64,000 bases of DNA from a candidate division FCPU426 bacterium (GTDB lineage Bacteria > Oederibacteriota > Muellerivitia > Muellerivitales > Muellerivitaceae): assembly GCA_963771075.1 (NCBI GenBank), contig CAVYSE010000020.1:11385-75384 (forward strand), given 5' to 3'. Under the pieces are notes generated by a model. It did no database searches. It was not told where the DNA came from and saw only the letters and a list, made by a program, of their open reading frames with translations. Of the stretch, positions 2,804 to 25,258 are shown one piece after another. The position numbers and the translations under genes were made by a program. Numbering within the stretch: the stretch's first letter is position 1; each line of letters begins with the position of its first letter.

Positions 2804-3189
2804 CCGCGCTGACTCAAACCGTTCTTAGGACCACCTGGGCCGGTGGATGGGGTAGGTGGGTAAAATAGGTACCACGAACTCAGCCCCTGCGGCTCCATTC
2901 AGAAGCTGAAAAAAACTTTGCTCTTCATCGCGATCTTCGCGGAAATCGTTTGAGGCAAGTTACCGGTAATAGATAAAAACAGGGCAGTTGTCAAATCGAT
3001 AATATTTGTATTCATCCATAATTGTAAGAATCTTCCCTTATTTCCGTTCAATTCGAGGTAAGATTTGAAAGCTGTTCCTTTCGCCCCCCTTCAGGGCAAC
3101 CGGTGCCCCGGTTGCCGAATGGGGATTCATTCAAAAAACCAAAATTCAAACAATCCAAATCACTTAATCTCCACGAAAAGGGAAGAACT

Positions 3190-6100: not shown

Positions 6101-9100
6101 GCTGCTGTCGGTGAATGGCGCGGTCAATGTAAACGCCGGGTCGTTGGAAGTCGCGGGGGGCGCGGGTAATTCGGACTATGGTTCCGCTGGTTCCATGGAC
6201 GGATCAGGCGGGAACGCGACCGCCCTACTGACCAATATGACCTTGACCTCGGATAATTATTTCGGTGGGCCCAACGTGGGTTCCCAAGCCAGTTTCACCC
6301 TCGCGGGGGGACAGGGCGGAAGTGACCTCAACCTGGGCAACGGGGGCGAAGGAGGCTCCTCGGCCTTGACGGTTTCGGGATGCGGTCTCGTTGGATTCGA
6401 GCGAATTGGCCCTTTCCGGCGGGGATGGCGGCGGCACCACTAACGGTACGGGCGGCACCGGTGGTAGCGCGACGGCCTCCTTTGGATCGATCTTGACCCT
6501 GACCGCCGCCCACGGCGATACCACTTTTACGGTGGCCGGTGGGGCGGGTGGCCAGTCGAATGGTTCCGGAACGGGCGGAACGGGCGGCGACGCGCTCTTG
6601 TCGGTCAATGGGGCTTTATCGATCGATTCCGCCAATGTGACCGTGGCAGGGGGGATTGGCAATGTCGGCGTTGGTTCCACCGGGTCCATGAACGGCGCGG
6701 GCGGAAACTCAGGTGCCGCTATGTCGGGCCTGTTTATGACCTCGAATAGTTATTTTGGGGGCCCGAGCGCTGGGTCCCAGGCCAGTTATGTCCTCGCGGG
6801 GGGAAACGGGGGGAGTGACACGGGCTTGGGCAACGGGGGCAAAGGGGGCTCGGCGGCCTTGACCCTCTTGGGCGGAGTTCAGGCGGATTCCAGCCTGGTT
6901 CAAATAACAGGAGGCAGCGGTGGAAGTTCCAGCGCAGGCGTGGCGGGCCAGGGTGGCGACAGTTCCTTGACCACCGGAACGGGTATCAGCCTGTCTGGAA
7001 CCTACCAGAGTTCGGTTTTGGATATCGCGGGAGGGTCGGGCGGCAATGGGGCCGATGGCGGTTCGGCGGCCTTGACGGTCGGGACGGCGATCACGGCCCA
7101 TTCCAGTTTCGTGACGGTTTCGGGAGGGTCGGGTGGCAATATCGCCAGCGGAAACGGGGGAAAAGGGGGCGACGCGACGGCGGTCCTCGGCACCTCTTTA
7201 GACATGGTCGCGGACAACAGCGATACCGGGTTCTCGGTGCTCGGTGGGAAGGGCGGCCAGACCAACGGATCAGGGGTGGGCGGGGCGGGCGGTGAGGCGG
7301 TTTTGACGGTCGCTTCCTCGGTGTCGGCGGATACCAGCCAGGTGAACATCCTGGGCGGCAACGCCAACTCGGGTTACGGTTCGAGCGGCGTTACCGAAAT
7401 GGCGGGCGGCGACGCGAACGCGTCCCTGGGTTCCATGAACCTGACCTCCAACCTTTATTACGGAAATCCCGGGGCCTATACCGGACCGGCCGCCCTAAAC
7501 CTGACGGGTGGGAATGGCGGTTATGACAGCAACGCGGGCAACGGCGGCCAGGGCGGTTCGGCATCCCTGACCGTTTCCGGGGGGTTCTCCATTGATTCCA
7601 GCCAGGTCGGTTTAAGGGGAGGCGTGGGCGGTAACGTGTCCAGCGGAACCGGGGGGCAGGGGGGAAACGCGTGGGTTTCCATCGGCACTGACTTGACCCT
7701 GGGTTCAACCTACGGGAGTTCGGGCATGAACCTGTACGGAGGGGGCGGCGGGAGCAGTTCCTCCGGGGTCGGGGGGGCGGGCGGCGACGCGACACTCCTG
7801 GTTTCGGGCGCCTTCTCGGGAAGCAATATCAACGTATTGGCGGGTAACGGCTCCAACGGTGGCAACGGCGGCAACGCCATTTTTGACGCGAATTCCGCGG
7901 CCTTGAACGGTAGCGCCACCCTGACCCTCCAGGCGGGGAATGGGGGCTCCGCCGGCAATGCGGGGGTCACCCTTGGTTCCCTCGACCTGGTGGACGCGGG
8001 TACCTTCATGAGCGTGCAGGCGGGAACGGGCACGTCCAACGGCGCGGCGAACGTCCAAATCGGATCGCTCGCGGGAGCAGGGGGACTTTTCGTCAACAGC
8101 GCGGGCAACAGCAGTTTGCAGGTTTCCAGCGGCGATTTCACCGGCGTCATTTCCGGAAATACGGGGCTGGACAAGACCGGCGCCGGGGCCCTGACCCTGA
8201 CGGCCGACAACACCTATTCGCAGGCCACTACCCTGGATGGGGGCGTCCTTCAATTCGGGGCTGACGCCAACCTGGGCGCCAGCGGCCAGCTGGTTTTCAA
8301 CGGGGGAACCCTGCAGGCGGGCAACGATCTCATCACCAACGAGACGGCGACGCTGGCATCTACGGCGGGAACCATTGACCTGAACGGCAACGCCGTGACT
8401 TGGAACGGAGTGATCGGCGGGCCGGGGTCCCTCAACGTGATCTCCTCGGCGGCGGGTTCGGGCCTCCTGACCCTTTCCAACACGAATACCTATGCGGGGG
8501 CCACATCCATCGTGAATACCGCGGTGGGTGTTTTTGGGGATTCCAACCTGGGGACGGGCGGGATTGTGCTTAATGGCGGCACCCTGGCGGCTTTGGACAA
8601 CCTGACCCTTTCCCATTCCATCACCCTTCTCGCGAACGGCGGGACCGTGGAGGATGACGCGAATAACATTACTTTGAGCGGAATCATCAGCGGTTCCGGC
8701 GGATTGAACCTTGAGGGCACCCCTTTTCACGGGGTTCAAGTTCTTAGCTTGACCGGGGCCAACACCTATTCGGGCGGGACAACCATCGGAGCCTTGTATT
8801 TACAGATCCAAAGTGGAGCCGACTTGGGGACGGGGACCGTTGTGTTCAATGGAGGGATATTACAGGCGGGCGCCAGTTTCGCCGCCAATCAAGACATCGC
8901 ACTTAATAACGGGTCGCGTGAGATTGATCTCAACGGCAACTCGGTCACCTGGAACGGCGTTATTAGCGGGAATGGGGAATTGGAGGTAGGGGATTCCTCT
9001 GGAAGTGGAAATGGGGTTTTGCGGCTGACCAATTCCAATACCTATACGAATGGGACTTTAGTGAATGGGGCTAATCTTTGGGTTTCCAGCGACGCCAACC

Positions 9101-11265
9101 TGGGCGCGGCCTCTGGCACCCTCAACCTGAGCGACGGCCAACTTTCGGCCTCCGACAACATCAATTTCAACGCCTCGAGAAACTTGGACCTGACCGGAAG
9201 CGGCGGCTTGTTGGATACCGAAGGCAACCAGATTACCTGGAACGGTGTCATTAGCGGCTCGGGAAACTTTGAGATCGGGGATGGCAGCCATTCCAGCACG
9301 GGGGCGGTGACCCTGACCAATGCCAATACCTATACCGGTTCCACCGTGGTCGATTTGGGCACCAGTCTGGTCCTCTCCGGCAATGGGACCTTGGGCGAGG
9401 GTATGCTGGGAGCTAATGGAACCGTCGATTTCAGCCTGACTAACGCCTCGGCCGTGGCGGGCACGCCCGTAACGGTTTCCTCCATCATCGGGAACGGCAA
9501 CCTCTACCTGGGCCGGATCGACCTGGTGACGGGGACCGATAACGCCAACGTGGAATTCGACGGGGTTATTTCCGACGGCGGGGCCGCAGGCGCGGGCGTC
9601 ACAGGCGCCTCGCTGACCAAGGTGGGTTCCGGGGCCTTGACCCTGACGGGCGAAAACACCTATAGCGGCGGCACGGTCCTTCAAAGCGGAACTCTCGTGG
9701 CGGGAAATAGCCAAGTGTTCGGCACTGGCGATGTGGCCCTCAACGGGGGTACCCTTCAGATCAGCGGGCCCCGGTCCCTGAACGTGGGGGGCAATTACAC
9801 CCAATCGGCCGGGGCGACCCTGGCCCTGGGCTTAGGCCCCATCGCGACTTCTTGGGACACCCTGGTGGTCGGGGGCACCGCCCACCTGGGCGGAACCCTG
9901 GAAGTGGTTTCCTACGGGGGGTTCGCCATTCACGACAACGAGACCTTCACCATCGTGGAGGCGGCCGGCGTGACCGGAACCTTCGGGAGCGTACAGGATT
10001 CCGTGCCCGGAGACGCGGTGTCGGTGGCCTACAACCCCACCGACGTGATCCTTTGCACACTGGCCAACGCGCCTTCATTCCATTCGTTGGGCACGACTTC
10101 CAACCAAAAACAGGTCGGCTCGGCCTTGGATAACCTGGCCACGGGTTCGGGTTCATCCGCCCTGATCACCTTCCTGAACAGCCAGTCCAATTCCGCCCTC
10201 CCGGGCGAAATGGAAAAATTGAGCCCGGCGGGATTAACTCCCCTTTTCCAGATGGGATACGCCTCGGCGGAAGTGCGGGGGCAGGCCATCAACGCGAGGC
10301 TGGAGGACCTCTTGGGTCTCACCAGCGTCTACGGCAACGGCCTGGCGAGGATGGGCGGAAGCCCGATGTTCGCCTCGACCCTGCCGGCGCGGGAGGAAGC
10401 GGGGATCGCCCGGCATGTTTCCGAGGACAACCGCCTGGGCGGGTTCCTGACCGGGCTGGGCGATTTCGGCACCGTCTCGGGCGATGGCAACGCTCCCGGT
10501 TACAGCTTTTCCACGGGAGGAGTGCAGGCGGGCATCGACTATTGGTTCGACCGCTCCCTGGTGGCCGGTCTTCTCTTCGGCTATGACCAGTCGGGAACCG
10601 GCACGGGAAGCACCGCCAGCGTCAGCGGCAGCGGGGAAATGGGAGGCCTCTACGCCGGATGGAAGGCGGATGAGCTTCGGATTTTGGCCCAGGTGACCGG
10701 CGGGCTGGACAACTACAGTACCCAGCGCGAGACGCTGGGCATGGGCGGGGTCAACGCCGTCGCCACGGGTTCGCCCCAGGGGGAACAACTGGGCGGGGAA
10801 CTGAAGGTGGCCTTGGACCTGACCGACGCCGGCCTGATCCTCTCTCCCTTCGCCTCGGGCCAGTATGGCTACGTGCAGGTGAACGCCTTCCAGGAAGCGG
10901 GAGGCGGGGTGCTGGCGCCCGAGTCCTTCCCGAACCAGGGGCAATCCTCCCTGTCGAGCCAATTGGGCCTCAAGATGGGGACGAGCTGGTACCTGGGAGA
11001 CTTCAGCCTGGCGCCCTCCATCAGCGCCGCCTGGGAACATTTCTTCCAGGGCGACCTGGACCAGATAACGGCTAATTTCGGGACCTCGGGTTCATCCTTC
11101 ATGGTGAGCGGACCCGCCACCGGGGCCGACGACGCCCTCTTGGGCGCCGGCTTGGAAGCACAGTTCTCCCGGCAAGTCACCTTTTTCGCCCAGTTCCAGG
11201 GCAGGGTGGGCATGACGAACGTGGATTCGAAGAATATTTCGGGCGGGGTGAACCTGGCTTTTTAA
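3190..11265 (+). pseudogene. Giant (~2690 aa if intact) classical autotransporter with Gly-rich (GGNGG / VDSS) repeat passenger and C-terminal autotransporter barrel. It is disrupted by four single-base frameshifts. Track ORFs 3103..4338, 4269..5180, 5201..6022, 5679..6443 and 6391..11265 are segments of one gene.
   Basis: ATG at 3190 after an AAGGGA ribosome-binding site, followed by a signal peptide MKNLFGIPALKISAFAVAALGFILG. The five successive ORFs in frames 1,0,2,0,1 all carry the same repeat family (LTVSGGVSLDSS..., GGNGGSDLNLGNGG...). Restoring one G in the G5 run at 4176-4180, one G in the G7 run at 5153-5159, one base near 5680, and removing one base near 6379-6386 makes one continuous frame. 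The C-terminus ends GGVNLAF with an autotransporter barrel homologous to ORF 2..2803. Confidence 0.8.
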
Positions 11266-12081: not shown

Positions 12082-13272
12082 TTATTTCAATTCGGGGTGT
12101 TCGGTGGTCAGCCTTTGCAGGTTGGAGATGGCCTTTTCGTTGTTGGGGTCTAATTTCAGGGTTTCCACCCAGTTTTTCTTCGCCCCGGCCCAATCATTGG
12201 TACGGTAACAATTGAAACCCAGGTTATAAAATTGATCGGCTTGGGCAACGTTGTCGTTGCCGGACGCGGGTGTTTGGATATTATCCAGTTGTTTTTTCCA
12301 ATCGGATAATTGGGGGTTATCGGGGTCCAGGGTTTTGAGACGGTCAAACGCGGTTTTTGCCTTGGATGCGTTTTTGGCCTTCAGGGCGGATTCAAACTTT
12401 TCCAAGGCGAGTTTCCGGTTGATTTTATCTAGGGAAGAAGTCCAATCCGTTTGATCCGGTTTTAAAACCAGGGCTTTCTTATAAAGGCTCTGGGCTTTGG
12501 CCAAGTCCCCCGAACGCTCAGCCTTTTTTGCCCGTGCGGCTAAATCGTTCGCGGAATCCCCGTTTTGTGATCCCTCTTCTTGACCATTGGAGGGTGTGGC
12601 CGCCGTACTTGCCTGGGATTTCGCTGTTTTATTTTCACCGCCGGCCTGGACCAATTGCCGGAAAGCTTGAACTTGGGGTTGGGCGGGATCCAAATCGACG
12701 GCTTTATTCAAGTAATTTAACGCGGATGCGCGATCGCCATTTGTATAGGCTTGAACCGCTTGGTTGTATAGGCTTTTGACCACACCATTAAAGGAATGGT
12801 CGGGGTTTTCCTGGAAGTCGGGAATGAAAGAATCGGATATTCCATTCGATTCCTTTTTTTCCATTTGGGGAAGAAGGTTCACGACCACCGGTACCTGGTC
12901 CTGGTCGACCTTGACCAGGAGGGTCAAGCGATACCCGTTCTTGAACCCCCTATTTATTTCGGCCGTGAAGCTTTTTTGGTTGGTCAATCCGCCCTTTTGG
13001 ACAACCTCGTTGGTAGTGGCATTTCTCAGGATCCAACCGCATAAAGCCGCATCACTTGAGACCATTAGATTAAATCCGTCTTGGTGGTCACGGACCGTCG
13101 TGTCCAGGTGTGCCCAAACCGCGTCCTGGTGGAACTTGTAGGTCGTGGACATGTTTTGAATGGCGAGAGGCGACGCGGAGGGCGTGGGGTTGGGGGAGGC
13201 ATCGTCGCATTGGCACGGCAAGGGGTTAAATGAAAATAGAAGGGCGCAAAGGTAAAGGAGCCGGAGGGTCAA
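12082..13272 (-). CDS. Secreted or lipoprotein TPR-repeat protein
   Basis: N-terminal signal peptide with Cys (LLFSFNPLPCQC). C-terminal TPR-like repeats. The start overlaps the upstream outer-membrane-protein gene stop by 4 bp (ATGA), which suggests translational coupling. Confidence 0.65.
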   Translation of the reverse strand: MTLRLLYLCALLFSFNPLPCQCDDASPNPTPSASPLAIQNMSTTYKFHQDAVWAHLDTTVRDHQDGFNLMVSSDAALCGWILRNATTNEVVQKGGLTNQKSFTAEINRGFKNGYRLTLLVKVDQDQVPVVVNLLPQMEKKESNGISDSFIPDFQENPDHSFNGVVKSLYNQAVQAYTNGDRASALNYLNKAVDLDPAQPQVQAFRQLVQAGGENKTAKSQASTAATPSNGQEEGSQNGDSANDLAARAKKAERSGDLAKAQSLYKKALVLKPDQTDWTSSLDKINRKLALEKFESALKAKNASKAKTAFDRLKTLDPDNPQLSDWKKQLDNIQTPASGNDNVAQADQFYNLGFNCYRTNDWAGAKKNWVETLKLDPNNEKAISNLQRLTTEHPELK

Positions 13273-14477
13273 AACTCCACCCCGGTGCGAATCAGGAAAG
13301 CGACTTGGTTATAGGACGCTGAGCGCAACCCGGTCCCTGGACCGTTAGTTTCATTCCCGGGCCCAAAGGAACCATTGAAGGGAAGGGCGAGGGCGGAGGG
13401 CGCGAGCCTGTCTAAAGTAAAGTCGTTTTGGTTGTTGGTGGCGTGGATTTCCAGGAATAGCACTTTGAGCCGCATTCGAAGTTTGGCGTATACGGAAACT
13501 TGCGGCTTTTGGGCAAGGGAGGGAATGAAGTTATTGCCGCCCGTAAAGGCATCGTCGAGGGAGTTGCCCATGGGGATTTGCGCTTCCAGGACGAATTGAT
13601 CAATGGACAAGGCTCCCCAGGTCCCGAGTTGTTCTTCTTGTAAACCTAACGCGAGGGCGCTGGTATCACTGAAGTGGGAAGTGTTTTGAACCCCGTATTC
13701 GGCGGTCAAGTCCGTGTTTTGATGCATATCGAGGTCGGCCGAAAGGGAGGCGGAAGGGCCTCCGTTGAATGAGGAATAATCGAAGAAATCGGTGGCGGTA
13801 CCGCCCACATTCGCTTTTAAGGTCAAGTCCAAGTCGTTGGAATCGATCCGGCACCGAAGCTGGCCCAGGCTATAGGCCTGGGTGGTATCTTCCTGCACCT
13901 GTTGGGCAGAGAAAAGGCTTGGGGTATAGAAGAAGCTTAGCGCCAAGGGCGACGAACCCTGGCCCTGGGTGTTTTTTGAATCTCCAAAGCCGAAAAATAG
14001 CGAGATCGGTATCGTCGCCCAAACCCCGTCCACGCGGTGGATGCCCATGATGGGATAGGCTCCAAAAAAAGCGTTGTTGGTCAAGGTTTGAAAGAGGTCA
14101 AAACGGCCCACCGAAACCTGGAACGAGGGGTCCAGGTAAGAGATTTTCGCCAATCGAAGGTCGACTTCGGAGGCTGAATCGGAAGTTGAAAGGCTTTTCC
14201 TAAAGCGGATCAAGCCATCTGCTGATACGGAATTCTCGTCCAATGAACGCTTGGCGGAAAGGTCGAACATGGAAAAGGCTTGGCCTTGCAGATCGGCGTC
14301 CTGCTGGAAATCCGCTTGGAGAAGAAATTTGATTTCGCGGGAGCTTTCACTGACTGGGGGCGGGGCCACCCATTTATTTTCTTGTCCCGTTTCTAAAAAC
14401 GAATTTTGGGAAAACGTTTCTTCGGCCAGCAGGAGAGTTGGAAGACAGAATAATATAAAGAAAGTTCTGATTTTCAT
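13269..14477 (-). CDS. Outer-membrane beta-barrel protein (family unassigned)
   Basis: Signal peptide MKIRTFFILFCLPTLLLA. Amphipathic alternating beta-strand pattern throughout. C-terminal residue Phe (..RTGVEF), typical of an outer-membrane-protein barrel. Confidence 0.6.
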   Translation of the reverse strand: MKIRTFFILFCLPTLLLAEETFSQNSFLETGQENKWVAPPPVSESSREIKFLLQADFQQDADLQGQAFSMFDLSAKRSLDENSVSADGLIRFRKSLSTSDSASEVDLRLAKISYLDPSFQVSVGRFDLFQTLTNNAFFGAYPIMGIHRVDGVWATIPISLFFGFGDSKNTQGQGSSPLALSFFYTPSLFSAQQVQEDTTQAYSLGQLRCRIDSNDLDLTLKANVGGTATDFFDYSSFNGGPSASLSADLDMHQNTDLTAEYGVQNTSHFSDTSALALGLQEEQLGTWGALSIDQFVLEAQIPMGNSLDDAFTGGNNFIPSLAQKPQVSVYAKLRMRLKVLFLEIHATNNQNDFTLDRLAPSALALPFNGSFGPGNETNGPGTGLRSASYNQVAFLIRTGVEF

Positions 14478-14593
14478 TTGACACCTGATATGACTAAAAA
14501 ATGTTGCTATTTTTTTGTTTAAAAAAATGCTGTTTTATTGTACATTTTTTAAAGTTGTTGGAAACAAAATTTTTACAATATTTGGGGCGGGAT

Positions 14594-15712
14594 ATGAAGA
14601 AGTGGCGGGTGGTTGAAACTACGGCGTTCCTAATTGCCGTTTTGGCTTTGCTTTGGGGAGGGCAAGGCGGCTGCAAGAAAAGCAATTCACCTTTTGGCGT
14701 CAACGCGCCCCAGGGGTTGGATGTGCCTACGCCTACTCCGACACCTATTTCGGGCGCCATAGAAGTTTTTGTTCAGGATAATTTTGTTGCCATGCAGGGT
14801 GTCACCGTATTTATCATCAACCCTTCGGGTGTAACCTTTGGCCCGTCTTTAACCCAACCTACTGTTGGGATGGCCCCTATTAATCCTCCTAATGTTCAGC
14901 CCGGCGTTTGGACTGCTTTTTTACCAACCCAGGGGGTTAGTTTTATGGTTGGTTTAAATAATAACCTGGAACCATATCAGCGTTATTATTACAACTCTAC
15001 TCAGACATTTAATGTTTCGCCTTCTGGTCAAGGATCGGTTTCTTTTCTTTCAACAGGGAATAACAGTGTTTCTTTGTCACCGGTTTCTCAGATTTATCCT
15101 TATGCCTATCCTTACGACATACCTTTAACAGCGACTTATATTAATAATGGAAATATTAATGTTCCCGTTTCAGTGAGTTGCGCTGGTTTGCCGGTAGGAA
15201 TGAATAGTTCGCCAACTAGTTTTATTTTAGGTGAAGGAGTAACAGTTCAACCGATTAATATTGTTAAAACTGCTTGTTATTCTTCTGATTTGCCCTTCTC
15301 TGTTAATGTTGTTGATTTTATGAACAGGTCGGTTTCTTCTTCTGCTACGACTCTATATCACGATTATTCTGTTCCTGTTTCCATTTACTACTACTACAAC
15401 CCAGGCGGCGGCTGTTCATCTTATGACCCCTGTACCGGTGCTGGCGCCTGTTATTGTTATAACTTTGGGATTCAACCCTCGAATGATTGTGGGGTTACGT
15501 GGACTTATTCGATGGATACAGGTTGTGGTAATTCCGGTAAAGGGACAATAACCTCAGGATCAAGCGGGGAAGTATCCTATTGTCTTAAATCTGGGTGGTT
15601 TGTCTGTTTCACCATTACCGAACCCTTTTCCTCAACTTCTTTTCAAGCGTGTGGAACTCTCAATAGTACGGGGTCAATCACTAATTTGATGGTCACTAAT
15701 TACACGAATTAG
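14594..15712 (+). CDS. Lipoprotein with Cys-rich C-terminal region (unknown function); first gene of the low-GC island
   Basis: ATG at 14594 gives MKKWRVVETTAFLIAVLALLWGGQGGC (lipobox-like). The track ORF starts earlier at an unlikely alternative start. Markedly lower GC than flanks. C-terminal CYCYNFGIQPSNDCGVTW...GCGNSGKG cysteine cluster. Confidence 0.6.
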   Translation: MKKWRVVETTAFLIAVLALLWGGQGGCKKSNSPFGVNAPQGLDVPTPTPTPISGAIEVFVQDNFVAMQGVTVFIINPSGVTFGPSLTQPTVGMAPINPPNVQPGVWTAFLPTQGVSFMVGLNNNLEPYQRYYYNSTQTFNVSPSGQGSVSFLSTGNNSVSLSPVSQIYPYAYPYDIPLTATYINNGNINVPVSVSCAGLPVGMNSSPTSFILGEGVTVQPINIVKTACYSSDLPFSVNVVDFMNRSVSSSATTLYHDYSVPVSIYYYYNPGGGCSSYDPCTGAGACYCYNFGIQPSNDCGVTWTYSMDTGCGNSGKGTITSGSSGEVSYCLKSGWFVCFTITEPFSSTSFQACGTLNSTGSITNLMVTNYTN

Positions 15713-15725
15713 AAAGGAAACTTTT

Positions 15726-16477
15726 ATGTTTTCTGCTCGTTTGGTTTTGTTGGTTTTGATTATTGGAGTTTTACCTGCTTGTACTGGTAAAACAGGACCT
15801 GCTGGTCCTAATGGTTCAAACGGCACATCGGCGCCGAATACATTTGAGGCCATGTTCCAAAACGGTGTTTTCCCTTCGACTTCCTATACAGGTGAACTTG
15901 ACACTTGGGTGAACGGTGGTGCGCCAGGGCAAACGAAATCGCTTCGCCTTATCTTGAACTTAATACAGGTTCGGCCTATTCAGATTATTCAAGAATCTTG
16001 ATACGTTTTAATGTTTCTACGCTTCCGTTAAACGCTTCAATTGTTTCTGCTGAATTGTTACTTACAACGGAAACCCAAACAACTGTTAGTTCAAGCCCTA
16101 TTACCATTGGTTTGCATAATTTAGCAAATGATACCTTTTCGGCCTGTAATTGGCTATTTAATGCTAATTGGGGAGGGTGGAGCGGTAGTCAGAGTTGGAA
16201 TTTATGTACAGGGGATACCACTCCGCAACAGGAGGGATATATAAACCCAACCACGATCAGCACCGTTGTTTTCACATCCGCCAACAATTCCAAATCCCAA
16301 GTATTCAAGTGGAGCATCGACCCGACCATTGTTCAGGCCTGGGTGGCGGGTACTTACAACAACGGGTTAATTCTTAAGTCAGAGGGTGAGTTTGGCGAAC
16401 CGACTTCGGCGGTGGATTTCTACCCCTACACGGATACAACGGGCAAAGCGGCGCAACTCATTGTTGAATATCAATAA
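15726..16477 (+). CDS. Lipoprotein with collagen-like GPAGPNG stretch and DNRLRE-like domain. Frameshifted, joining ORFs 15726..16001 and 15905..16477.
   Basis: Lipoprotein signal (VLPAC). DTWVNGGAPGQ...YLELNTGSAYSDYSRILIRFNVSTLPLNASIVSAELLLT resembles the DNRLRE secreted-protein domain. The frame changes 0 to 2 near 15925-15935 at an A3 run, consistent with one missing A. Confidence 0.5.
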
Positions 16478-16492
16478 ACTAAAAGGTTAAAA

Positions 16493-16951
16493 ATGAAAAA
16501 ATTACTCAGCCTCATTCTCTTGGTGATGTTCCTGATGCCAATCGTTTCGCATGCGGAATCGTCCATTCGAGTGTTGGTAACTATTCGTGATGACAGCGAT
16601 TCGGCGAGTCAGTTTAAAAGTTTGATTATGGAACGGTTAACCGACATGAAAGATATTAGTGTCATGAATGACCCGAAAACCCAGACCGAAGATATGGAAC
16701 TGAAAATGGTATTGCTGGAACAGAAGAATGACAATGGCGATATCATCGGGTTCACCCTATCGATCGATACTTACAAAAACTGCAAATTTAACATACTGGA
16801 AATCATGACCGCCGATAATATCGACCGTTTAGGAAACATGGTTCTGGATTATTTGAAGACCAAAATATTTAAACCCTACCTGGATAATAAATTGTGGATT
16901 GACCCGAGTTTGAAGCCGAAACCCGCTGATGATAACGATATCAACCCTTGA
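16493..16951 (+). CDS. Small secreted protein, unknown function (low-GC island)
   Basis: Signal peptide MKKLLSLILLVMFLMPIVSHA. Charged, low-GC coding region. No recognisable domain. Confidence 0.6.
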   Translation: MKKLLSLILLVMFLMPIVSHAESSIRVLVTIRDDSDSASQFKSLIMERLTDMKDISVMNDPKTQTEDMELKMVLLEQKNDNGDIIGFTLSIDTYKNCKFNILEIMTADNIDRLGNMVLDYLKTKIFKPYLDNKLWIDPSLKPKPADDNDINP

Positions 16952-16978
16952 TTTTTAATAAACAGGCAGGAGGATCAA

Positions 16979-17428
16979 ATGCTTTTTGACCTATTCAAGA
17001 AAAAAGAAGAAATCGGCAATCAAGTCGAAATCGACGGTTTTTTTAAAAGCCTCGGCGATTCAACGAGCCCCCAAAGGTTCGATAAGGCGGCGGAAGCCTT
17101 CCGCGCATCCCTTCAAGTTGTCCTGAAAGAATCGGCGGACAACGCCCGGGAAGTCGTCATTGATTTCATGAATTTTCTCAGTGACGACGGCTTAATCCAG
17201 AACTCTGATACCCCCGCTTGGGAAGTGCCCTATGGATGCCGGGTAGAAGGTTTCAAACGCTTGATGGCCAAAGATTGGGCCGGTCTCTCAAAGAAGTTCA
17301 GCGAACCCGGTGCGGTGCAAAAGGTCCTTTCGGATAGCCTGGAACAGGACTTCCCATTATCCAAACAGGCCCAGGCTTTTTTTGGCCTCAAGAAAGACCG
17401 GGACCCTTTGGATTCATTTCCGGGCTAA
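16979..17428 (+). CDS. Hypothetical cytoplasmic protein (low-GC island)
   Basis: No signal peptide. GGAGG-like ribosome-binding site (caggaggatcaaATG). Same strand and tight spacing with the three upstream genes. Confidence 0.55.
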   Translation: MLFDLFKKKEEIGNQVEIDGFFKSLGDSTSPQRFDKAAEAFRASLQVVLKESADNAREVVIDFMNFLSDDGLIQNSDTPAWEVPYGCRVEGFKRLMAKDWAGLSKKFSEPGAVQKVLSDSLEQDFPLSKQAQAFFGLKKDRDPLDSFPG

Positions 17429-17443
17429 GCGGCCCGAAGCCCC

Positions 17444-18619
17444 TCAACGGACCAGCAGGACCTTCTTCATTTTGTGGTCGAGCGGTTCCACCAAATAAAT
17501 CAGGTAAATCCCGCTGGCGCAGGGGTTGTTGGCGTAGTTGGTGCCGTTCCAGGGGGGGCCGGCATAGGTGATGGGCTGGTTCGCGGTTTGATTGGGTACG
17601 AGTGCCTTGATGAATTCACCGGCGGTGTTGTAGATCTTCAACGAATAAGGCCCGGGGAACTGGGAATAGCCCACGAAAATTGAAAGCGGCCCCTGCGCGG
17701 GTCTGAAAACATTCTGGCTGACATAAAAGTTGTCCTCATAAGGTATGGTCGCCGTCGGGGTCAAGGTGACGGTCGGCGACAAGGTGATGGTGGGCGTCAG
17801 GGTGACCGTCGGCGTGATCGTGATGGTGGGAGTTGAAGTGGGGGTTAGGGTTTGGGTGGGGGATGGGGTGGTTGTTGGGGTGAGTGTCGAGGTGGGGCTA
17901 TCGGTGGCAGTCCAGCTGGCCGTCGGTGTCACCGTAAAGGTCGGGGTGGGGGTTGGGGTCAAGGTTTGGGTCGGTGTGATGGTGGGTGTGATGCAGGGGG
18001 GGACATAGACCAATTCATAATTGGCCCCCGTCGATCCGACTTCCCCATCCGTCGCCGCGAAGTCCAGCAGGTTCGTCCCCCCGATGTTCAAGTCCGCCGC
18101 CGGCACATTGACGGGGGTATTGAGCGAACCGGGGCCTGTCACACAACCTCCCGCCCAAGCCGATCCGCAGGTAGTGATCTCATTCCCGTTGAGGGTGACC
18201 GCCGCGAAATCATCCGCCTGGTAATAGAAGATAAACGACCCCGTACTCATCCAGGAGGGGATGGTGAAGGTCTGGTAGATGTGGTAAGTCCAAGGCGCGG
18301 TCGGTTCGGGTGAATCCGCGGAGTTGTCGAAGCTGATCCAGTTAGAACCGGGATAGGGGGGCGGCTCCGGGTTATCCGTGACGACCACCGCTGGCATGGG
18401 GCTGGGAAAGACGGTGCCCGACGAATAGATATAATCCGCCCCGTTGCCGCTGTAGAAAACCAGCTGGGACGAACAGGAGGGGACCTGCGTTTCGGTTGGA
18501 AAGGGAGTCGCCGTAAAAGTGGGGATTTGGGCTTGGGAAGGCAATGCCGTTAGGCTCAGGAGACCCAGGGCCAGGCAAGTGCCAAAGAATAGGTGTTTTT
18601 TCCTAATACCTGAAGCCAA
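17444..18619 (-). CDS. Secreted protein with long Pro/Thr linker and T9SS-type C-terminal sorting domain
   Basis: Signal peptide. ~80 aa of TPT/TLTPT linker. C-terminus YSLKIYNTAGEFIKAL...WNGTNYANNPCASGIYLIYL...KMKKVLLVR matches the Por_Secre_tail pattern (IYD.G..V...WDG....G..VASGVYFY...KKMLLLK). Confidence 0.75.
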   Translation of the reverse strand: MASGIRKKHLFFGTCLALGLLSLTALPSQAQIPTFTATPFPTETQVPSCSSQLVFYSGNGADYIYSSGTVFPSPMPAVVVTDNPEPPPYPGSNWISFDNSADSPEPTAPWTYHIYQTFTIPSWMSTGSFIFYYQADDFAAVTLNGNEITTCGSAWAGGCVTGPGSLNTPVNVPAADLNIGGTNLLDFAATDGEVGSTGANYELVYVPPCITPTITPTQTLTPTPTPTFTVTPTASWTATDSPTSTLTPTTTPSPTQTLTPTSTPTITITPTVTLTPTITLSPTVTLTPTATIPYEDNFYVSQNVFRPAQGPLSIFVGYSQFPGPYSLKIYNTAGEFIKALVPNQTANQPITYAGPPWNGTNYANNPCASGIYLIYLVEPLDHKMKKVLLVR

Positions 18620-19440: not shown

Positions 19441-19671
19441 GGGCGTATTTTACGTGGAATTAGTTCGGGGACCAGCCCCCTCAAGAAAATATAAAGAGAA
19501 CCCCTCGGCCTTGACCGCGAAGCCAAGGATCACTTTGGAACTGCCCCCCCAAGTTCTATGACAAAACACTTGTTTTCCAGCGTCCCCCTCCCGAAAAACG
19601 ATTTAGGAACGCCGATCAAAGTTTTGACATGGGCCATTTCTTGGCGAGTAGCCCTTCCGAAGGATGGCCGA

Positions 19672-19956
19672 TATGGTGGTAAAAGGTTACCAGGAACATG
19701 TTCCAATCCATTCCGCCTTGGGTGTCATGGATCGTCGCGGCTGAGAATTAAAATCAATCGGACGAATTATTTTGAAATTTACATTCCCGCCTCCGCAAGC
19801 TTGATAGTATCATTCATCAGGTTTAACGCCCCTTTTTGAAATTGAGGGGAAAGAAAAATAAAAAAATTAGGGGAGCCGCCATGAAGCATCAAGGGTGGAC
19901 TTTATTTCTCGTGTTGGTATTAGGCCAAGCCTTGGTCCTGTCCCACCTGGCCTGCG
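19672..19956 (+). repeat. Copy A of a duplicated ~285 bp leader plus signal-peptide segment (pairs with 22066..22345)
   Basis: Direct comparison: ...AAAGGTTACCAGGAACAT...GGGTGTCATGGATCGTCGCGGCTGA[G/A]AATTAAAATCAATCGG...TTGAAATTTACATTCCCGCCTC...TTGATAGTATCATTCAT...TTGAAATTGAGGGGA...ATGAAGCATCAAGGGTGGACTTTATTTCTCGTG... Confidence 0.8.
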
Positions 19957-21974
19957 GGAACGGCAATACCCCCACCAGCGCCCCCGCACCCGTGACGGTC
20001 GTTCAACTGGTGACGGCCACACCCACCCCCACAACTTCAGGCACTGCCCTATTCACGGCTACCTCCACAAAAACGATCACTTTAAGCCCCACCGTCACCA
20101 ATTCCCTTACGATTACCTTCACGCCCACCATCACGGGAACCTTCACCCAAACGAACACTCCCACGGTAACGAATACCCCCACCGCGACCTCGACTCCCAT
20201 GATCCTGTCGGTGGCAACCGTCCTCGGCACACCCGCGGACTCGACGCAGGCCCCCGGGGCGCAGAATGTGCCCATGATGCAGTTCAGCGTTAACAATCCC
20301 GGACCTGCCCCGGTGACCCTTTACGGATTTATTTTTCAATCCGTGGATTCAAGCAATGGGTCGCAAATATCGGGGGTCGCCCTTTTGAATTCCCAGGGAA
20401 CCCTGTTGGATAGCCGGGATTACAATTCGGGCTATGTGACGTTGGGAGGCGCTCCGCTAACGATCCTCGCAGGCGGTTCGGCTACTTTTGTGACGAATTA
20501 TAATTTTCAGGCGACGGCGGCGACCGGGGAATACAGCATGTCCCTGATGGGCATCAAGGGCCGGGATGACACCGGGCAGCTGGTCCAGGTCACAGGGGTT
20601 CCCGTGAGGGGCGCCCTGATCACGGTCGCGCAGTCGACCTTGGTCCCGACCAATAGCCCGACCAATAGCTTCACCTTCACTCCAACCTATACGGGAACCA
20701 TCACCCCGACGATCACCATGACCCCTCCCTTTACGGCGACTCCCACCCCGACTTCGACCCCCTACCTTTTGTCGGTGGCGACCCTCGCGGGTACGCCCTC
20801 GGCTTCGTTACAGATTCCCGGGGTGCAGAACGTGGCGGTGATGCAGTTGAGTGTGAACAACGCTGGATCAGCCCCAGTTACCTTATACGGATTGGTATTA
20901 CAGGCGGTCGATTCCACCTATGGGTCACAGATCGAGGCGGTGGATCTTTTAAACGCCCAAGGCGCCTTATTGGATAGCAAGCCGTTTGGCAATTCGGGTT
21001 ATGTGACCTTGGGAGGCGCACCCCTGACAGTGCCGGGGTCTGGCGCGGTGACCTTCGGGGTGAATTATGACTTTCAGGCGTCGGCCGGGAATGGAACCTA
21101 CACGGTGGGTTTGACGGGTTTGCGGGGAGTCGATGACACCGGCCAACCGGTACAGGTATCGGGGATTCCGGTGACGGGCGCGGCCATCTCGATCGCCCAA
21201 CCAACGGTGACTCAAACGGTCACCCCGACCAGCAGTCCCACCATCACCTTTACGCCCGCCAATACCTCCACGCCTTCTTGTCCAAGTGGGGAGTACAATT
21301 GCGGGGGCCAGTGCGTCAATTTTCAAACCGACAACAATAATTGCGGGGCCTGTGGGTTTGCCTGCGCCGCTGGACAAGTTTGTTCGGGCGGTTCTTGCCA
21401 ATTAAGCTGTGAGACCGGCGAGACGAATTGTTCCGGGCAGTGCGTCAACCTTCAAACGAGCGACCAAAACTGCGGGACCTGTGGACATGCCTGCGCCGCT
21501 GGACAAGTATGTTCGGGTGGTACTTGCGCCATTAGTTGTCAAAGTGGCTTAACGAATTGTTCGGGGGAGTGCACCAACCTGCAAACCGACAACAGCAACT
21601 GCGGAGCCTGCGCTCACCCATGCGCGGCCGGGCAAATATGTTCGGGCGGTTCTTGCCAATTAAGTTGCGAGAACGGAGAAACCGCTTGTTCCGGGCAGTG
21701 CGTCAACCTTCAAACGAGCAACCAAAACTGCGGGGCGTGTGGGGTTGCCTGCGCCTCTGGACAAGTATGTTCGAGCGGGAAATGCACAATTACCTGTCCT
21801 TCGGGCGAAACCGCATGCCCTTCTTCTAGCCCGACCGGTTGTTTCAATCTCTCCAATGATGTCAACAACTGCGGGTCGTGCGGGCATGTGTGCGCTCCCG
21901 GCCTGGATTGTGTTGGCAGTAGTTGCGTCAATACGGTGCCAACCGTAACACCGACCCCGACCGCCACGCCCTGA
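19881..21974 (+). CDS. Lipoprotein: two copies of a ~170 aa domain, Pro/Thr linkers, then seven tandem ~30 aa cysteine-rich repeats (C..G.T.C.G.C.NLQTD..NCG.CG..CA.GQ.CS.G.C)
   Basis: ATG at 19881 after an AGGGGAG ribosome-binding site. MKHQGWTLFLVLVLGQALVLSHLACG lipobox. Internal duplication (LSVATVLGTPADSTQAPGAQNVPMMQFSVNNPG... twice). Seven CxxC-type repeats at 21290-21960. Confidence 0.8.
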   Translation: MKHQGWTLFLVLVLGQALVLSHLACGNGNTPTSAPAPVTVVQLVTATPTPTTSGTALFTATSTKTITLSPTVTNSLTITFTPTITGTFTQTNTPTVTNTPTATSTPMILSVATVLGTPADSTQAPGAQNVPMMQFSVNNPGPAPVTLYGFIFQSVDSSNGSQISGVALLNSQGTLLDSRDYNSGYVTLGGAPLTILAGGSATFVTNYNFQATAATGEYSMSLMGIKGRDDTGQLVQVTGVPVRGALITVAQSTLVPTNSPTNSFTFTPTYTGTITPTITMTPPFTATPTPTSTPYLLSVATLAGTPSASLQIPGVQNVAVMQLSVNNAGSAPVTLYGLVLQAVDSTYGSQIEAVDLLNAQGALLDSKPFGNSGYVTLGGAPLTVPGSGAVTFGVNYDFQASAGNGTYTVGLTGLRGVDDTGQPVQVSGIPVTGAAISIAQPTVTQTVTPTSSPTITFTPANTSTPSCPSGEYNCGGQCVNFQTDNNNCGACGFACAAGQVCSGGSCQLSCETGETNCSGQCVNLQTSDQNCGTCGHACAAGQVCSGGTCAISCQSGLTNCSGECTNLQTDNSNCGACAHPCAAGQICSGGSCQLSCENGETACSGQCVNLQTSNQNCGACGVACASGQVCSSGKCTITCPSGETACPSSSPTGCFNLSNDVNNCGSCGHVCAPGLDCVGSSCVNTVPTVTPTPTATP

Positions 21975-22018: not shown

Positions 22019-22065
22019 AGTGCCGGTTATCCAATCATCCACCGGTGTGAGACGGCTAAAACCAT

Positions 22066-22345
22066 GGTGGAAAAAGGTTACCAGGAACATATCCAAATCC
22101 TTTACGCCTTGGGTGTCATGGATCGTCGCGGCTGAAAATTAAAATCAATCGGTGAATTAATTTGAAATTTACATTCCCGCCTCTACAAGATTGATAGTAT
22201 CATTCATGAAGTTCGACGCCCCCTTTTTGAAATTGAGGGGAATGTAAATAAAAAATTAGGGGAGCCGCGATGAAGCATCAAGGGTGGACTTTATTTCTCG
22301 TGTTGGTATTAGGCCAAGCCTTGGTCCTGTCCCACCTGGCCTGCG
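22066..22345 (+). repeat. Copy B of the duplicated leader plus signal-peptide segment
   Basis: See copy A. It contains a plausible extended -10 promoter element, TTGATAGTAT. Confidence 0.8.
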
Positions 22346-23907
22346 GGGGCGGAAACAACAACCCGACGACTCCTGGCGGCAATAATAACGGGTCCAACCC
22401 AACCTCAACCTTTACCACGACCGCCCAAGCGACCAACACCCAGACTTCCAGCCCTACCTTCACGAAAACCCTTGTCAATTCGCCCAGCCCCACCTTGACC
22501 CTCACGAACACCCCGACCAACTCGCCCACGGGCACTCCCACTGTTACCTCCACCCCGACCTTGACGGGAACCATCACGAACACGCCAGTCTTCACCGCTA
22601 CCGGCACCATCACCGGCACGCCGACCTCCAGCTCGACTGAAACGGCCACCGATGTTCCTAGCGGCACCCCCACAACCACGTCCACTACCACGTCCACCCC
22701 CATCATGACCGGAACCCTCACCTTTACCGCGACCGCTGACCCTTCCGATACGCCTACCGCCAGTGGGACCCCAACCGCGACCTTAACCCAAACGGATACA
22801 CCCACGGACTTGCCCACAAGCACGCCGACCGACCTGCCCTCCGCCACGCCCACCCAAACCTCGACCTCGACGGTGGGAATTGGTTCCGCTTGCTCGTACG
22901 ACAGTGACTGCGCCACCGGGGATTATTGCTCGGGCGTGACCTGCGCGGCGAAATTGAACCAAGGCAATGTTTGCTCGGCGGCCGATCAATGTATAACCGG
23001 TAATTGTGTGGATGGTTATTGTTGTAATACCGCTTGCGGAAGTGGTGTTTGTTCGGCGGTCCTAAAGGGCGGAGGATCGAATGGGGTTTGTGGTTGTATA
23101 GCGATTGGCCTTCCATACCCCTTGAGTCCCAATCAATGCTGTACCAGTTACGGGGCAGGCGGGGTTTGCCAAAACGCGCCAACACTCACGCCCACCGTTA
23201 CCCCGACCTCCACGCCGTCCGCGACCCCCACCTCCACACCCACCGCCAGCCCCACCGTTACCTTAACCGGCACTTTCACTCCCACGCCTGGGTCGAACGG
23301 TGTGACCTGGACTTTCTCGGATTGCGGGTCGGGCAGTTCCGGCCCCACGGACGGATGGATTCAGGCCTCCCCGACATCCCCTTCAACTTTGGTTTCCATT
23401 CAAACCATCACGGGTTTGGGTAGTGGGCTTGTTGGTTCAAGCACTTGCGGATTGGCTTTCTATCTCCCCGGAGGCGCCATGTCGAATGGTATGTGTAGCT
23501 GGCAGTCAACGGGGACGGACATCGAGACAGTTTCGGCCTACGCTAACTTATCTGTACCCATCAACTGGACCCAAAACGGGTTAACCACGATATCCCTTCA
23601 ATTTACCTATAATGGTTATGGAGCCGGTATCCAACCGATCATCGTGGCGGGTTCCGGTCCGACGACTTACAGTGGAACCGTCGTTAATGACAACCAAAGT
23701 TCACCCAGTTGGTTGACGGCCATCTTTAGTCCATCCTTCAACGGTTCTGATGGAACCCAAGTTTTGGCGGCCGGTTTAGTTGTGAACGAAATGGCTCCAC
23801 CCCTCTCCATGCCCAATCCACATCCCCCCCCCGCTACTATTTGCGCGCCGTCCGGTGAAGAATTGGGCCCTGAAACCATATACGTTGATAACATTGAATT
23901 TTATTGA
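22270..23907 (+). CDS. Paralogous lipoprotein: identical signal peptide, Pro/Thr/Ser-rich region, Cys-rich module, C-terminal beta-rich domain
   Basis: The first ~25 codons and ~200 bp of upstream leader are near-identical to gene 19881..21974. Cys-rich GSACSYDSDCATGDYCSGVTCA...CCNTACGSGVC region. Confidence 0.8.
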   Translation: MKHQGWTLFLVLVLGQALVLSHLACGGGNNNPTTPGGNNNGSNPTSTFTTTAQATNTQTSSPTFTKTLVNSPSPTLTLTNTPTNSPTGTPTVTSTPTLTGTITNTPVFTATGTITGTPTSSSTETATDVPSGTPTTTSTTTSTPIMTGTLTFTATADPSDTPTASGTPTATLTQTDTPTDLPTSTPTDLPSATPTQTSTSTVGIGSACSYDSDCATGDYCSGVTCAAKLNQGNVCSAADQCITGNCVDGYCCNTACGSGVCSAVLKGGGSNGVCGCIAIGLPYPLSPNQCCTSYGAGGVCQNAPTLTPTVTPTSTPSATPTSTPTASPTVTLTGTFTPTPGSNGVTWTFSDCGSGSSGPTDGWIQASPTSPSTLVSIQTITGLGSGLVGSSTCGLAFYLPGGAMSNGMCSWQSTGTDIETVSAYANLSVPINWTQNGLTTISLQFTYNGYGAGIQPIIVAGSGPTTYSGTVVNDNQSSPSWLTAIFSPSFNGSDGTQVLAAGLVVNEMAPPLSMPNPHPPPATICAPSGEELGPETIYVDNIEFY

Positions 23908-24584
23908 TCAGCTTCACTAAAGCGCGATCCCTGAAAGGATTTGACCTATCAAGCGGTATCGTTCAATCCCCGGGTTCCCGTTAATTGTGTCGGCAATATT
24001 TTCACATGCCTGCGGTACCAGTGAAAAAAGGGGCAAAACCCCTTTTTCCATCCTGCTACCTCACCCTGAGGCGGCGTGACAAATAACCGGGCCGGAAAAA
24101 ATTTCAGGTTTTGAATTTCTGCTTTCTGCCAAATCACGCCTTCCCATGGCTTCTTTACCAAACACCGACCCACTAGGAGAAACATTTGTTGGCGGCCGAG
24201 ACCAATGAAAATTAAAATCAATCGTACGAAGCCCATCATCTGGGTGGTGTCCACCCAATTGGCCAAAGCCACCCTGTGGGACTCAGTTATCAAATTTAAG
24301 GGTTTTTTGAAGATTTTGGTAAATCAACTCTTTTGCCGTTTGATTTCTTCCCCATCGGAAAGTTCGCTTTCCCTCCTGTCCGGCTTCAGGCCGGTCCCAG
24401 GGCCTAAAGCGGCCAGATGAGGGACGGCATTCTCAGAAATACCCCTAATTCCCTTATTTGAATTCGTGGCTTGGTCACGAATTACCCTCCTTCGGGGCCT
24501 ACAGCGCCTAATCGTACGGCAGAACTCTTCGAAATCCCTTCATTTTGTGTGACCGTAATACGGGCTCGTAAGGCCATCGCTTCG

Positions 24585-24692
24585 AGGTATGGGAGGGGTA
24601 ATAGCCGAAGCGCCCGCCCAACCTTTTCCGAGGCAGACCCTTACCGGTCCGTAATGCGTCTTTGGGTCAGTATCGGGTTGGCGCTTTGCATT
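24585..24692. repeat. Diverged direct repeat copy 1 (~110 bp). Conserved core CGGTNNGTAATGCGTCTTTGGGTCAG[T/G]ATCGGGTTGGC.
   Basis: Aligned by eye to 25155..25258. The core 38-mer is near-identical. Flanks are similar but diverged. Confidence 0.6.
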
Positions 24693-24907
24693 GGAATATG
24701 CACAATCCGACTGCCCGAGTCCTCATAAAAGAAAATCCTCAAAAAACCCTTAAAAATGGCATTCGCCCGGCGAATGCGAAAAATAAGGGTTTTTCGCGTG
24801 GATGGTTTGGGTACTAATAGACCCTTTAAAATAAGGGATTTGCTTGTCCGAGGATCGGACAAGTGGAAATAAGGGAATTGGCCATCTCCTGGGAAAAGCC
24901 AGGGCTC

Positions 24908-24946
24908 GTTGCCAATTAACGTCAGGGCCTGACGTTAATTGGCAAC
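24908..24946. repeat. Perfect 39 bp palindrome: GTTGCCAATTAACGTCAGG-G-CCTGACGTTAATTGGCAAC (19 bp arms, 1 nt centre)
   Basis: Verified base by base. Candidate dimeric DNA-binding-protein site or RNA hairpin. Confidence 0.9.
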
Positions 24947-25154
24947 AAGAATCACCCCACATCTAAAACAAGGGAGTTCTAATTCGGAGTATCCGATTTA
25001 TAAAATAAGGGTTTTTTGAAAACCGAGGGAAGCCTTTTGGCATTGGCCGACCTTTGGGACTAAACCGGCCAAATGGGATAAAGCCAAATCAGAAATACTC
25101 AAATTTCCCTTATTTTTAGTGTTCGTAATACGAACAATCAAATCCCTAGCTTCA

Positions 25155-25258
25155 TGGTTGAGGAGGAGCAGAAGACGATGCGCCCGGGTTACCTTCTCCC
25201 GGTCAAACCCTAATCGGTTTGTAATGCGTCTTTGGGTCAGGATCGGGTTGGCCCGGAT
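25155..25258. repeat. Diverged direct repeat copy 2
   Basis: See copy 1. Confidence 0.6.

Follow-up and report, generated by a model that had tools for sequence, protein, structure and literature searches.

An AT-rich lipoprotein gene pair linked to barrel and TPR genes in candidate division FCPU426: probable half of an outer-membrane module

Introduction

Does a sharply bounded low-GC block reveal the arrival of foreign genes, or may it be a lasting property of the genes it contains? The question is raised by a locus in a 64,000-nucleotide stretch of DNA from a candidate division FCPU426 bacterium (contig CAVYSE010000020.1, positions 11,385 to 75,384; hereafter the window, whose own numbering is used), where the guanine plus cytosine (GC) content falls over four small co-directional genes, here called g1 to g4. 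A preliminary description took the interval 14480-17430 as a single low-GC island and proposed that it was a horizontally acquired surface-modification or toxin-immunity-like cassette. The analysis presented here leads to another answer. The first two genes encode predicted lipoproteins, and we consider, with a probability of about 0.6, that they form one half, rapidly evolving, of an outer-membrane module that comprises four genes and is peculiar to FCPU426. The other half would be a porin-like β-barrel protein and a periplasmic TPR protein translationally coupled to it, and the two lipoproteins are probably surface-exposed and diversify by exchange of a cassette. The functional unit is not contained in the interval first delimited, but reaches into 12082-14477 on the minus strand.

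Conserved linkage of the lipoprotein, barrel and TPR genes

The lipoprotein genes g1 (14594-15712) and g2 (15726-16477) lie on the plus strand. Divergently from them, on the minus strand, are encoded an outer-membrane β-barrel protein of 402 amino acids (13269-14477) and a TPR protein of 396 amino acids (12082-13272). The relatives of this locus belong to candidate division FCPU426 and come from metagenome-assembled genomes (MAGs) of soil, bog and groundwater. A scan seeded with the barrel, taking one genome per species, yielded 13 loci with the main body of the barrel gene. In all 12 loci that extend past the barrel gene a TPR gene stands beside it, downstream in 10 and divergently upstream in 2 (L026 and L027); a TPR homologue is found directly downstream of the barrel gene in L007, L009, L011, L013, L015, L016, L018-L024, L028, L031, L034 and L035. 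The gene g1 adjoins the barrel gene in 9 of the 13 species loci (L017-L025), six of which have g2 as well, and a metagenome scan seeded with g2 found g1, the barrel gene or both adjoining g2 in 7 of 7 informative loci.

The association occurs in two gene orders. In the window and in L009, L013, L032, L034 and L036 the layout is divergent, the barrel and TPR genes being read in one direction and g1 and g2 in the other, while in L007, L024 and L035 the four genes are co-directional in the order g1, g2, barrel, TPR. Two contigs that are cut upstream of g2 (L031 and L033) show g2 followed by the barrel gene, as in the co-directional layout. Since the linkage has been kept through both gene orders, it speaks for a functional tie between the genes, and it is chiefly on this ground that a joint action of the four products is proposed. 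The preliminary description had itself named conserved synteny across the phylum as what would speak against an island, and the g1/g2-barrel-TPR synteny does extend across FCPU426.

The pair also occurs by itself. In L005 (10001-11860) g1 and g2 have a patatin-like gene on one side and a PIN/PhdYeFM toxin-antitoxin pair on the other, in a 14-kb locus that contains no barrel or TPR gene, and IS1595 transposases are encoded 7-10 kb upstream. The arrangement in L005 suggests that the g1-g2 pair is able to relocate.

Divergence and allelic replacement

Identity to the window across loci is 52-79% for the barrel, 42-64% for g2 and 28-44% for g1. Within the species of the window, the divergence of g1 and g2 is found in a hypervariable AT-rich cassette (14,940-16,230) that comprises the C-terminal two thirds of g1, the spacer between the genes and the N-terminal two thirds of g2. 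The second haplotype of the species was obtained by joining contigs L008 and L001, whose overlap is 99.9% identical. Sliding identity between both haplotypes is 100% over 13417-14785, that is, the barrel gene, the divergent spacer and the first 190 nucleotides of g1; it collapses at about 14,940 to about 40-60%, and is again 95-100% past about 16,240. Both conspecific alleles of the cassette are equally AT-rich (GC 0.41-0.42), and in the second g2 copy of L001 the g2 core has a third allele. The variable part of the window g1 is 53% identical to the allele of another species (P0003/L039) and 41% identical to the conspecific allele, the corresponding values for the conserved N-terminal part being 60% and 96%. 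The alleles are therefore either older than the species or move between them. Hence horizontal acquisition stands in a narrow sense, as the exchange of a 1.3-kb cassette between haplotypes, and is not supported in the form of a four-gene island of 3 kb.

Contig L001 further displays, at positions 1468-1520, two g1-g2 cassettes in tandem, window positions 16493-16534 being joined to 15370. The junction lies at a microhomology (TGTTCCTG.T.TCCA) between the codons of the g3 signal peptide and the 3' part of g1, and in its second copy g2 is broken by several changes of frame. L001 is a single noisy long-read contig, and the tandem may be a real duplication or a misassembly of a strain mixture.

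Base composition of the block

The GC content of the window, on average 0.564, falls to 0.37-0.46 over approximately 14,300-17,000. The 1-kb window of lowest GC in the 64 kb (0.401) begins at 14,401, and the two 3-kb windows with the most deviant tetranucleotide composition start at 14,001 and 14,501. The spacer of 116 base pairs that separates g1 from the divergent barrel gene (14478-14593) has a GC content of 0.26. Both the sharp drop against the flanks and the AT-rich region starting near 14480, as first reported, were thus confirmed. The second haplotype (L008) has the spacer unchanged, with 100% identity, and a bidirectional promoter is presumed to lie in it; scans for consensus sigma-70 promoters and terminators gave no useful gain over shuffled sequence.

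The four genes are nevertheless not one compositional unit. An atypical codon composition is restricted to g1 and g2, where the GC content at third codon positions (GC3) is 0.375 and 0.35-0.43 respectively, against 0.59-0.73 in the flanking genes. The AT-richness of g3 (GC3 0.54) is due to its amino acid content, as indicated by a GC at second codon positions of 0.26, and g4 (GC 0.50, GC3 0.57) resembles its neighbours. As a unit of atypical codon composition, the block of the preliminary description comes down to its first two genes. The positions and common strand given for the four genes, which are spaced by 13-27 nucleotides, proved right, except that g2 is split by a frameshift and has no single intact open reading frame (ORF).

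The window has two more stretches of low GC (24.1-26.5 kb and 52.1-54.5 kb), so the GC content of this region is heterogeneous; the atypical base composition expected of an island is present in the block, and low GC is not confined to it. In 13 of 13 loci, moreover, g1 has a lower GC3 than the barrel gene beside it, with a mean gap of 0.16. AT-richness is therefore a standing feature of these genes across the phylum. The recurrence of a low g1 GC3 speaks against a recent gain of the four genes, as does g4, which keeps its relative position in L009, the closest relative with a g1-g2 pair.

Other signs of mobility were sought. The 64-kb window has no tRNA genes; no meaningful direct repeats flank the block, nor were att-like repeats found, and no integrase is encoded around it, the neighbouring genes being those for the TPR and barrel proteins, a PT-rich protein and a thioredoxin-like protein according to Pfam. 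Comparison of g1-g4 with PADLOC, Pfam, NCBIfam and PHROGs produced no toxin, immunity or defence family and no catalytic domain. Hence the idea of a toxin-immunity-like cassette receives no backing from these collections, in which the lack of recognisable catalytic domains, also part of the preliminary description, is borne out. That description was also correct for the single products: g1 is a Cys-rich lipoprotein-like protein, g2 combines a lipobox with five Gly-X-Y triplets and a DNRLRE domain, g3 is secreted and acidic, and g4 has no signal peptide.

The Ig-like lipoprotein g1

The g1 product has 372 amino acids, 12 of them cysteines. Its start at 14594 is backed by the alignment of homologues, the mechanical ORF beginning at 14501. 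The family has no match in Pfam, NCBIfam, PADLOC or PHROGs and is very sparse, since only 6 homologues were detected among 5.8 billion proteins searched, and a profile search with an alignment of 16 g1 sequences added one protein among the matches listed. All 15 g1 homologues are intact. In the alignment Cys27 is near-invariant, preceded by G or S at -1 and by variable residues at -3 and -2, and is the predicted lipid anchor. The best-conserved stretch of the protein directly follows this cysteine (CKKT(D/N)SPFGVYAPxGLDVPTxTPTP); the remaining body is poorly conserved and the last 250 amino acids or so are hypervariable. The AlphaFold2 (AF2) model is all-β, with three immunoglobulin-like (Ig-like) sandwich domains and a predicted local distance difference test score (pLDDT) of 75. 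Foldseek searches with the model against PDB and viral structures returned generic tandem Ig-like, BACON, FN3 and PapD-like folds at template modelling (TM) scores of 0.2-0.3, from which no specific family could be named.

The DNRLRE lipoprotein g2 and its frameshift

The g2 product has 250 amino acids after repair. Its lipobox reads LPAC, its collagen-like part comprises five Gly-X-Y triplets (GKTGPAGPNGSNGTS), and its domain is a β-sandwich of the DNRLRE/CBM96 type. In the window the gene is split into two ORFs (15726-16001 and 15905-16477) by a -1 change of frame at about 15929-15933, and tblastn with an intact orthologue places the switch between 15923 and 15935. One base is missing from a GGG or AAA run at about 15929-15933, and adding one A or G back restores the 250 amino acids. 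The unrepaired g2 already matches the DNRLRE model NF033679 with 46.2 bits (E 5e-12), above the curated cut-off of 34 bits, and the repaired protein reaches 53.9 bits and is continuous over profile positions 2-150. The 10 orthologues of g2 are all intact and of the same build; all 10 match NF033679 (best E 5.8e-17), one matches Pfam CBM96, and the canonical lipobox L-x-[GA]-C is present in 10 of 10 g2 sequences.

The break is probably an assembly indel, because the window assembly carries further frame breaks (for instance in the autotransporter at 3103-11265), the MAGs of the lineage bear Flye-style contig names, and a difference of homopolymer length is found elsewhere in the window. The last is the only difference from the short-read contig L002 in 3.27 kb, a run of seven C in the window against six at 19544, and is consistent with uncertainty of homopolymer length in the source assembly. 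Programmed -1 frameshifting was rejected, as no X XXY YYZ slippery heptamer occurs at 15925-15935, and classical phase variation was likewise rejected, the runs at the break having a length of 3 nucleotides.

The DNRLRE domain is related to the alginate-binding module CBM96 (PMC9971899), and binding of carbohydrates is established for the founder of CBM96 and for a chondroitinase module (PMC9971899, PMC12611786). By analogy, the DNRLRE/CBM96-type domain of g2 would probably bind a glycan. That the Gly-X-Y triplets, which number 5-7, could drive a trimerisation that matches a trimeric porin is only an idea.

The divergent barrel and TPR proteins

The barrel protein begins with a signal peptide, is predicted to form 16 strands and ends in GVEF, of which the terminal F is conserved. 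Its homologues number 64 and come without exception from uncultured bacteria. No Pfam or NCBIfam family was matched at E <= 0.1, and no sequence relative was detected in PDB, where the searches with g1, g2, g3 and g4 gave nothing usable either. The AF2 model has 16 strands (pLDDT 68), and its best Foldseek matches are the porins OmpC, OmpF and OprB at TM 0.42-0.49, values that derive from this pLDDT 68 model. Neither a POTRA or Omp85 signature nor a match to a family of the β-barrel assembly machinery (BAM) was found in the protein.

The TPR protein has a signal peptide and a β-rich N-terminal domain followed by TPR repeats (Pfam TPR_2, E 5e-16). The N-termini of these proteins bear signal peptides of the signal peptidase I type without a conserved lipobox. 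The start codon of the TPR gene and the stop of the barrel gene overlap by 4 nucleotides, which suggests translational coupling. A match to TPR_Slam is weak (16.6 bits, E 0.011, cut-off 35.2), and this is one of 16 TPR families matched. An exopolysaccharide export pair of the AlgK/AlgE or PgaA kind was considered for the barrel and TPR proteins and rejected, since the module is not accompanied by conserved genes for a synthase or a glycosyltransferase.

The downstream genes g3 and g4

The small secreted acidic protein g3 (16493-16951, plus strand, 152 amino acids) has a signal peptide with cleavage after SHA. Its sequence is 98.7-100% identical in four conspecific contigs, and no counterpart is found in the locus of any relative. 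Among 1.84 billion representatives there are only 2 true relatives, both on contigs of about 1 kb that give no context; a third match (P0075) was discarded as a low-complexity cadherin-like repeat protein. Hence g3 is essentially an orphan, restricted to the species and outside the conserved module.

The small cytoplasmic protein g4 (16979-17428, plus strand, 149 amino acids) has no signal peptide and belongs to no family: Pfam, NCBIfam and PDB gave no match, and neither did a metagenome scan. It is a real gene under constraint, because none of the five nucleotide differences between L003 and the window within g4 changes the protein, which is 100% identical. An orthologue with 57% identity is encoded in L009, on the same strand and downstream of g2. 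It is probable that g3 and g4 are co-transcribed passengers.

The surroundings of this orthologue deserve description. L009 is the nearest relative with g1-g2, and in the stretch 4089-8747 its g2 is succeeded by further same-strand genes, spaced by 12-25 nucleotides. These are a 123-amino-acid gene, a BaxI-family gene, the g4 orthologue, a Peptidase_M48 gene of 562 amino acids, whose product has a lipoprotein-like N-terminus, and a 163-amino-acid gene. This order, in which the g4 orthologue is preceded by the 123-amino-acid and BaxI genes and followed by the peptidase gene, hints at a link to quality control of envelope proteins.

Neighbouring regions of the window

The region from 12 to 24 kb is in its entirety given over to surface proteins. 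The genes at 17444-18619, 19836-21974 and 22270-23907 encode proteins with very long Pro/Thr-rich linkers, and two of these three share a start of 24 residues with signal and lipobox (MKHQGWTLFLVLVLGQALVLSHLAC). L001 matches the window at 22064-22347 with 92% identity, which indicates a repeated upstream segment. On the other side, a giant Gly-rich autotransporter (3103-11265) has a 3' end with the Pfam Autotransporter β-domain and PATR repeats, and shows four frame switches (about 4150, 5100, 5500 and 6400) with no gaps between the frames; either the gene has decayed, or assembly indels have entered this repetitive, GC-rich sequence. Another autotransporter is cut off by the start of the window (2-2803). 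Finally, the approximately 2 kb at 24,000-26,040, of low GC (0.42-0.49), contain no ORF of at least 115 amino acids and no Rfam match. They are located just upstream of an ECF-sigma-like gene at 26041. Within them two direct repeat units (24389-24682 and 25045-25252) have diverged to about 70% identity, and AAATAAGGGTTTTT is the basis of several inverted repeats.

Discussion

The linkage, the two kinds of lipoprotein and the replacement of alleles can be brought together as follows. The g1 and g2 proteins would be exported, lipidated at their conserved cysteines and carried to the outer membrane, where the barrel/TPR pair may serve as their dock or as their route to the cell surface, a proposal built on analogy with Slam and with barrel complexes that carry DNRLRE-like lipoproteins. 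There, g1 would present its three Ig-like domains on a Pro/Thr tether, and g2 would hold out, on a short stalk of collagen-like sequence, its domain of the DNRLRE/CBM96 type, which probably binds glycans. Exposure of these parts, whether to phages, to predators or to polysaccharide ligands that change, would lead to their diversification, and whole 1.3-kb alleles (14,940-16,230) would be swapped through recombination in the conserved flanks. The AT-richness would then be a stable trait of the allele pool and not a mark of recent foreign origin. Surface exposure is suggested because the alleles are discrete, diverged and recombining and have conserved anchoring ends, and because the proteins possess a Pro/Thr tether, many cysteines and a domain of carbohydrate-binding type. 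To this extent the earlier idea of a cell-envelope or surface locus gains support, and diversifying selection on the exposed parts would be in keeping with it.

Several points weigh against this reading. Four of the 13 barrel loci (L015, L016, L026 and L027) have the barrel-TPR pair with neither g1 nor g2 within 10 kb, and L005 has g1-g2 with no barrel; the linkage is thus frequent and not obligatory. The gene g2 is frameshifted in the assembly and may be non-functional in this strain. The barrel model has a pLDDT of 68, and a TM of about 0.45 to porins is generic for β-barrels. Low GC and fast divergence are also explicable by weak constraint or low expression. The linkage, the domains, the conserved lipobox cysteines, the replacement of alleles and the compositional pattern in the phylum are observations; contact among the four proteins, the outward facing of g1 and g2, glycan binding and diversifying selection are what we infer from them.

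The alternative that survives best, although doubtful, is a Slam-like (type XI-like) translocon split in two, in which the TPR protein would receive the lipoproteins in the periplasm and the barrel would flip them outward, g1 and g2 being the dedicated substrates. A TPR module and a barrel are encoded beside lipoprotein genes, and the same logic is known from Slam, whose genes adjoin those of their lipoprotein substrates (PMC5449769). The 4-nucleotide overlap of the barrel and TPR genes, the weak TPR_Slam matches and the strongly conserved tether that follows the lipid anchor of g1, which could be a recognition element, fit as well. Against these, the barrel has no DUF560 match and is modelled with 16 strands instead of 14, the TPR part is a separate protein whose TPR_Slam match remains under the cut-off, the g1 model consists of β-sandwiches and not of the 8-strand barrel typical of Slam substrates, and Slam is known from Proteobacteria alone. 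A more specific proposal, tentative and on present grounds unlikely, would make of the locus a novel system of FCPU426 for the display of surface lipoproteins. The 16-strand barrel, standing by itself, and the TPR protein, as a distinct chaperone in the periplasm, would be a functional analogue of Slam in two proteins, which exports or docks two dedicated lipoproteins, and the exposed parts of the latter would be encoded by a swappable 1.3-kb cassette that strains and species exchange.

Less probable still is that g1 and g2 are periplasm-facing accessory lipoproteins of a porin, with a structural or regulatory role, and owe their AT-richness and divergence to weak constraint and low expression rather than to exposure. 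Most lipoproteins of diderm bacteria face the periplasm, the high GC3 of the barrel gene is like that of a well-expressed gene and those of g1 and g2 are not, g2 is frameshifted in the window, and the second copy in L001 looks degraded. However, the intactness of all 10 g2 orthologues and 15 g1 homologues speaks against this, deeply diverged alleles with sharp bounds and conserved ends are the pattern of recombining surface antigens rather than of neutral decay, and the carbohydrate-binding-type domain, the Pro/Thr tether and the many cysteines fit an extracellular role. Finally, a foreign island recently gained from a low-GC donor is largely refuted and very improbable: the lowest GC and most deviant oligonucleotide composition of the window, the sparseness of the g1 family, the proximity of g1-g2 to IS1595 transposases and a PIN/PhdYeFM pair in L005 and the difference of the cassette between strains would agree with it, but the synteny with the barrel and TPR genes is kept across the phylum, g4 is conserved and composed like its neighbours, a low g1 GC3 recurs in all loci, both conspecific alleles are equally AT-rich, and no tRNA, integrase, att-like repeats or toxin, immunity or defence families were found.

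If the outer-membrane module proposed here is correct, several consequences follow. It would be a phylum-specific module made of families that have no annotation (the barrel, g1 and the N-terminal domain of the TPR partner), and a candidate route of lipoproteins to the surface in diderm bacteria beyond Proteobacteria, Bacteroidota and spirochaetes. It would also be a clear case from nature of antigenic diversity of the cassette type, in a soil and peat lineage that is uncultured, pointing to strong biotic selection by phages or predators. In general, a sharp low-GC block is by itself no evidence of foreign origin.

Comparison with known systems

The Slam proteins (DUF560), whose substrates include TbpB, HpuA and fHbp, resemble the locus in that a TPR module and a barrel are encoded beside lipoprotein genes and that the lipoproteins are variable and the barrel conserved. 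Adjoining lipoprotein genes, g1 and/or g2, are found here in 9 of 13 barrel-seeded and 7 of 7 g2-seeded loci. In Slam the N-terminal TPR module is fused to a 14-strand DUF560 barrel, whereas in FCPU426 these are two proteins, with 16 predicted strands and no DUF560 match. Slam substrates combine a TbpB-like handle with an 8-strand barrel, the lipoproteins of FCPU426 are Ig-like and DNRLRE proteins, and the phylum differs from Proteobacteria.

The SusC/SusD systems of Bacteroidota, with their SusE/F-like lipoproteins, also bring together a barrel, a helical-repeat partner and fast-evolving lipoproteins of β-sandwich or CBM type. A common logic, in which glycan capture feeds a channel, is plausible by analogy. 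The FCPU426 module differs in having no TonB-dependent receptor, plug or SusD match in Pfam, a barrel of porin size (402 amino acids), a TPR protein without conserved lipobox and no glycoside hydrolases in the conserved block.

Allelic, AT-rich surface-antigen loci such as tbpB and the O-antigen clusters are maintained by recombination in their conserved flanks. The sharp breakpoints, the deeply diverged alleles within a species, the sharing of alleles across species and a GC content below that of the genome are common to such loci of pathogens and to the cassette described here. The latter, in contrast, spans parts of two adjacent genes instead of one gene or a whole biosynthetic cluster, and belongs to an uncultured phylum of soil and peat.

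In the BAM complex of Flavobacterium, a member of the Bacteroidota, the closest structural homologue of the lipoprotein BamH is a chondroitin-sulfate-binding module annotated as a DNRLRE-domain protein (PMC12611786); in that complex a lipoprotein with a DNRLRE-annotated homologue is bound to an outer-membrane barrel. The FCPU426 barrel has no POTRA or Omp85 signature, and the resemblance is at the level of architecture only. With the DNRLRE/CBM96 proteins themselves (NF033679, PF24517) the likeness is direct, as g2 and its 10 orthologues score above the model cut-off. Known members are mostly large multidomain enzymes or proteins of S-layer type, while g2 has a single domain, a lipid anchor and 5-7 collagen-like triplets. 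In g2 the DNRLRE-domain proteins have a true member, of a form that is unusual in being minimal and lipid-anchored.

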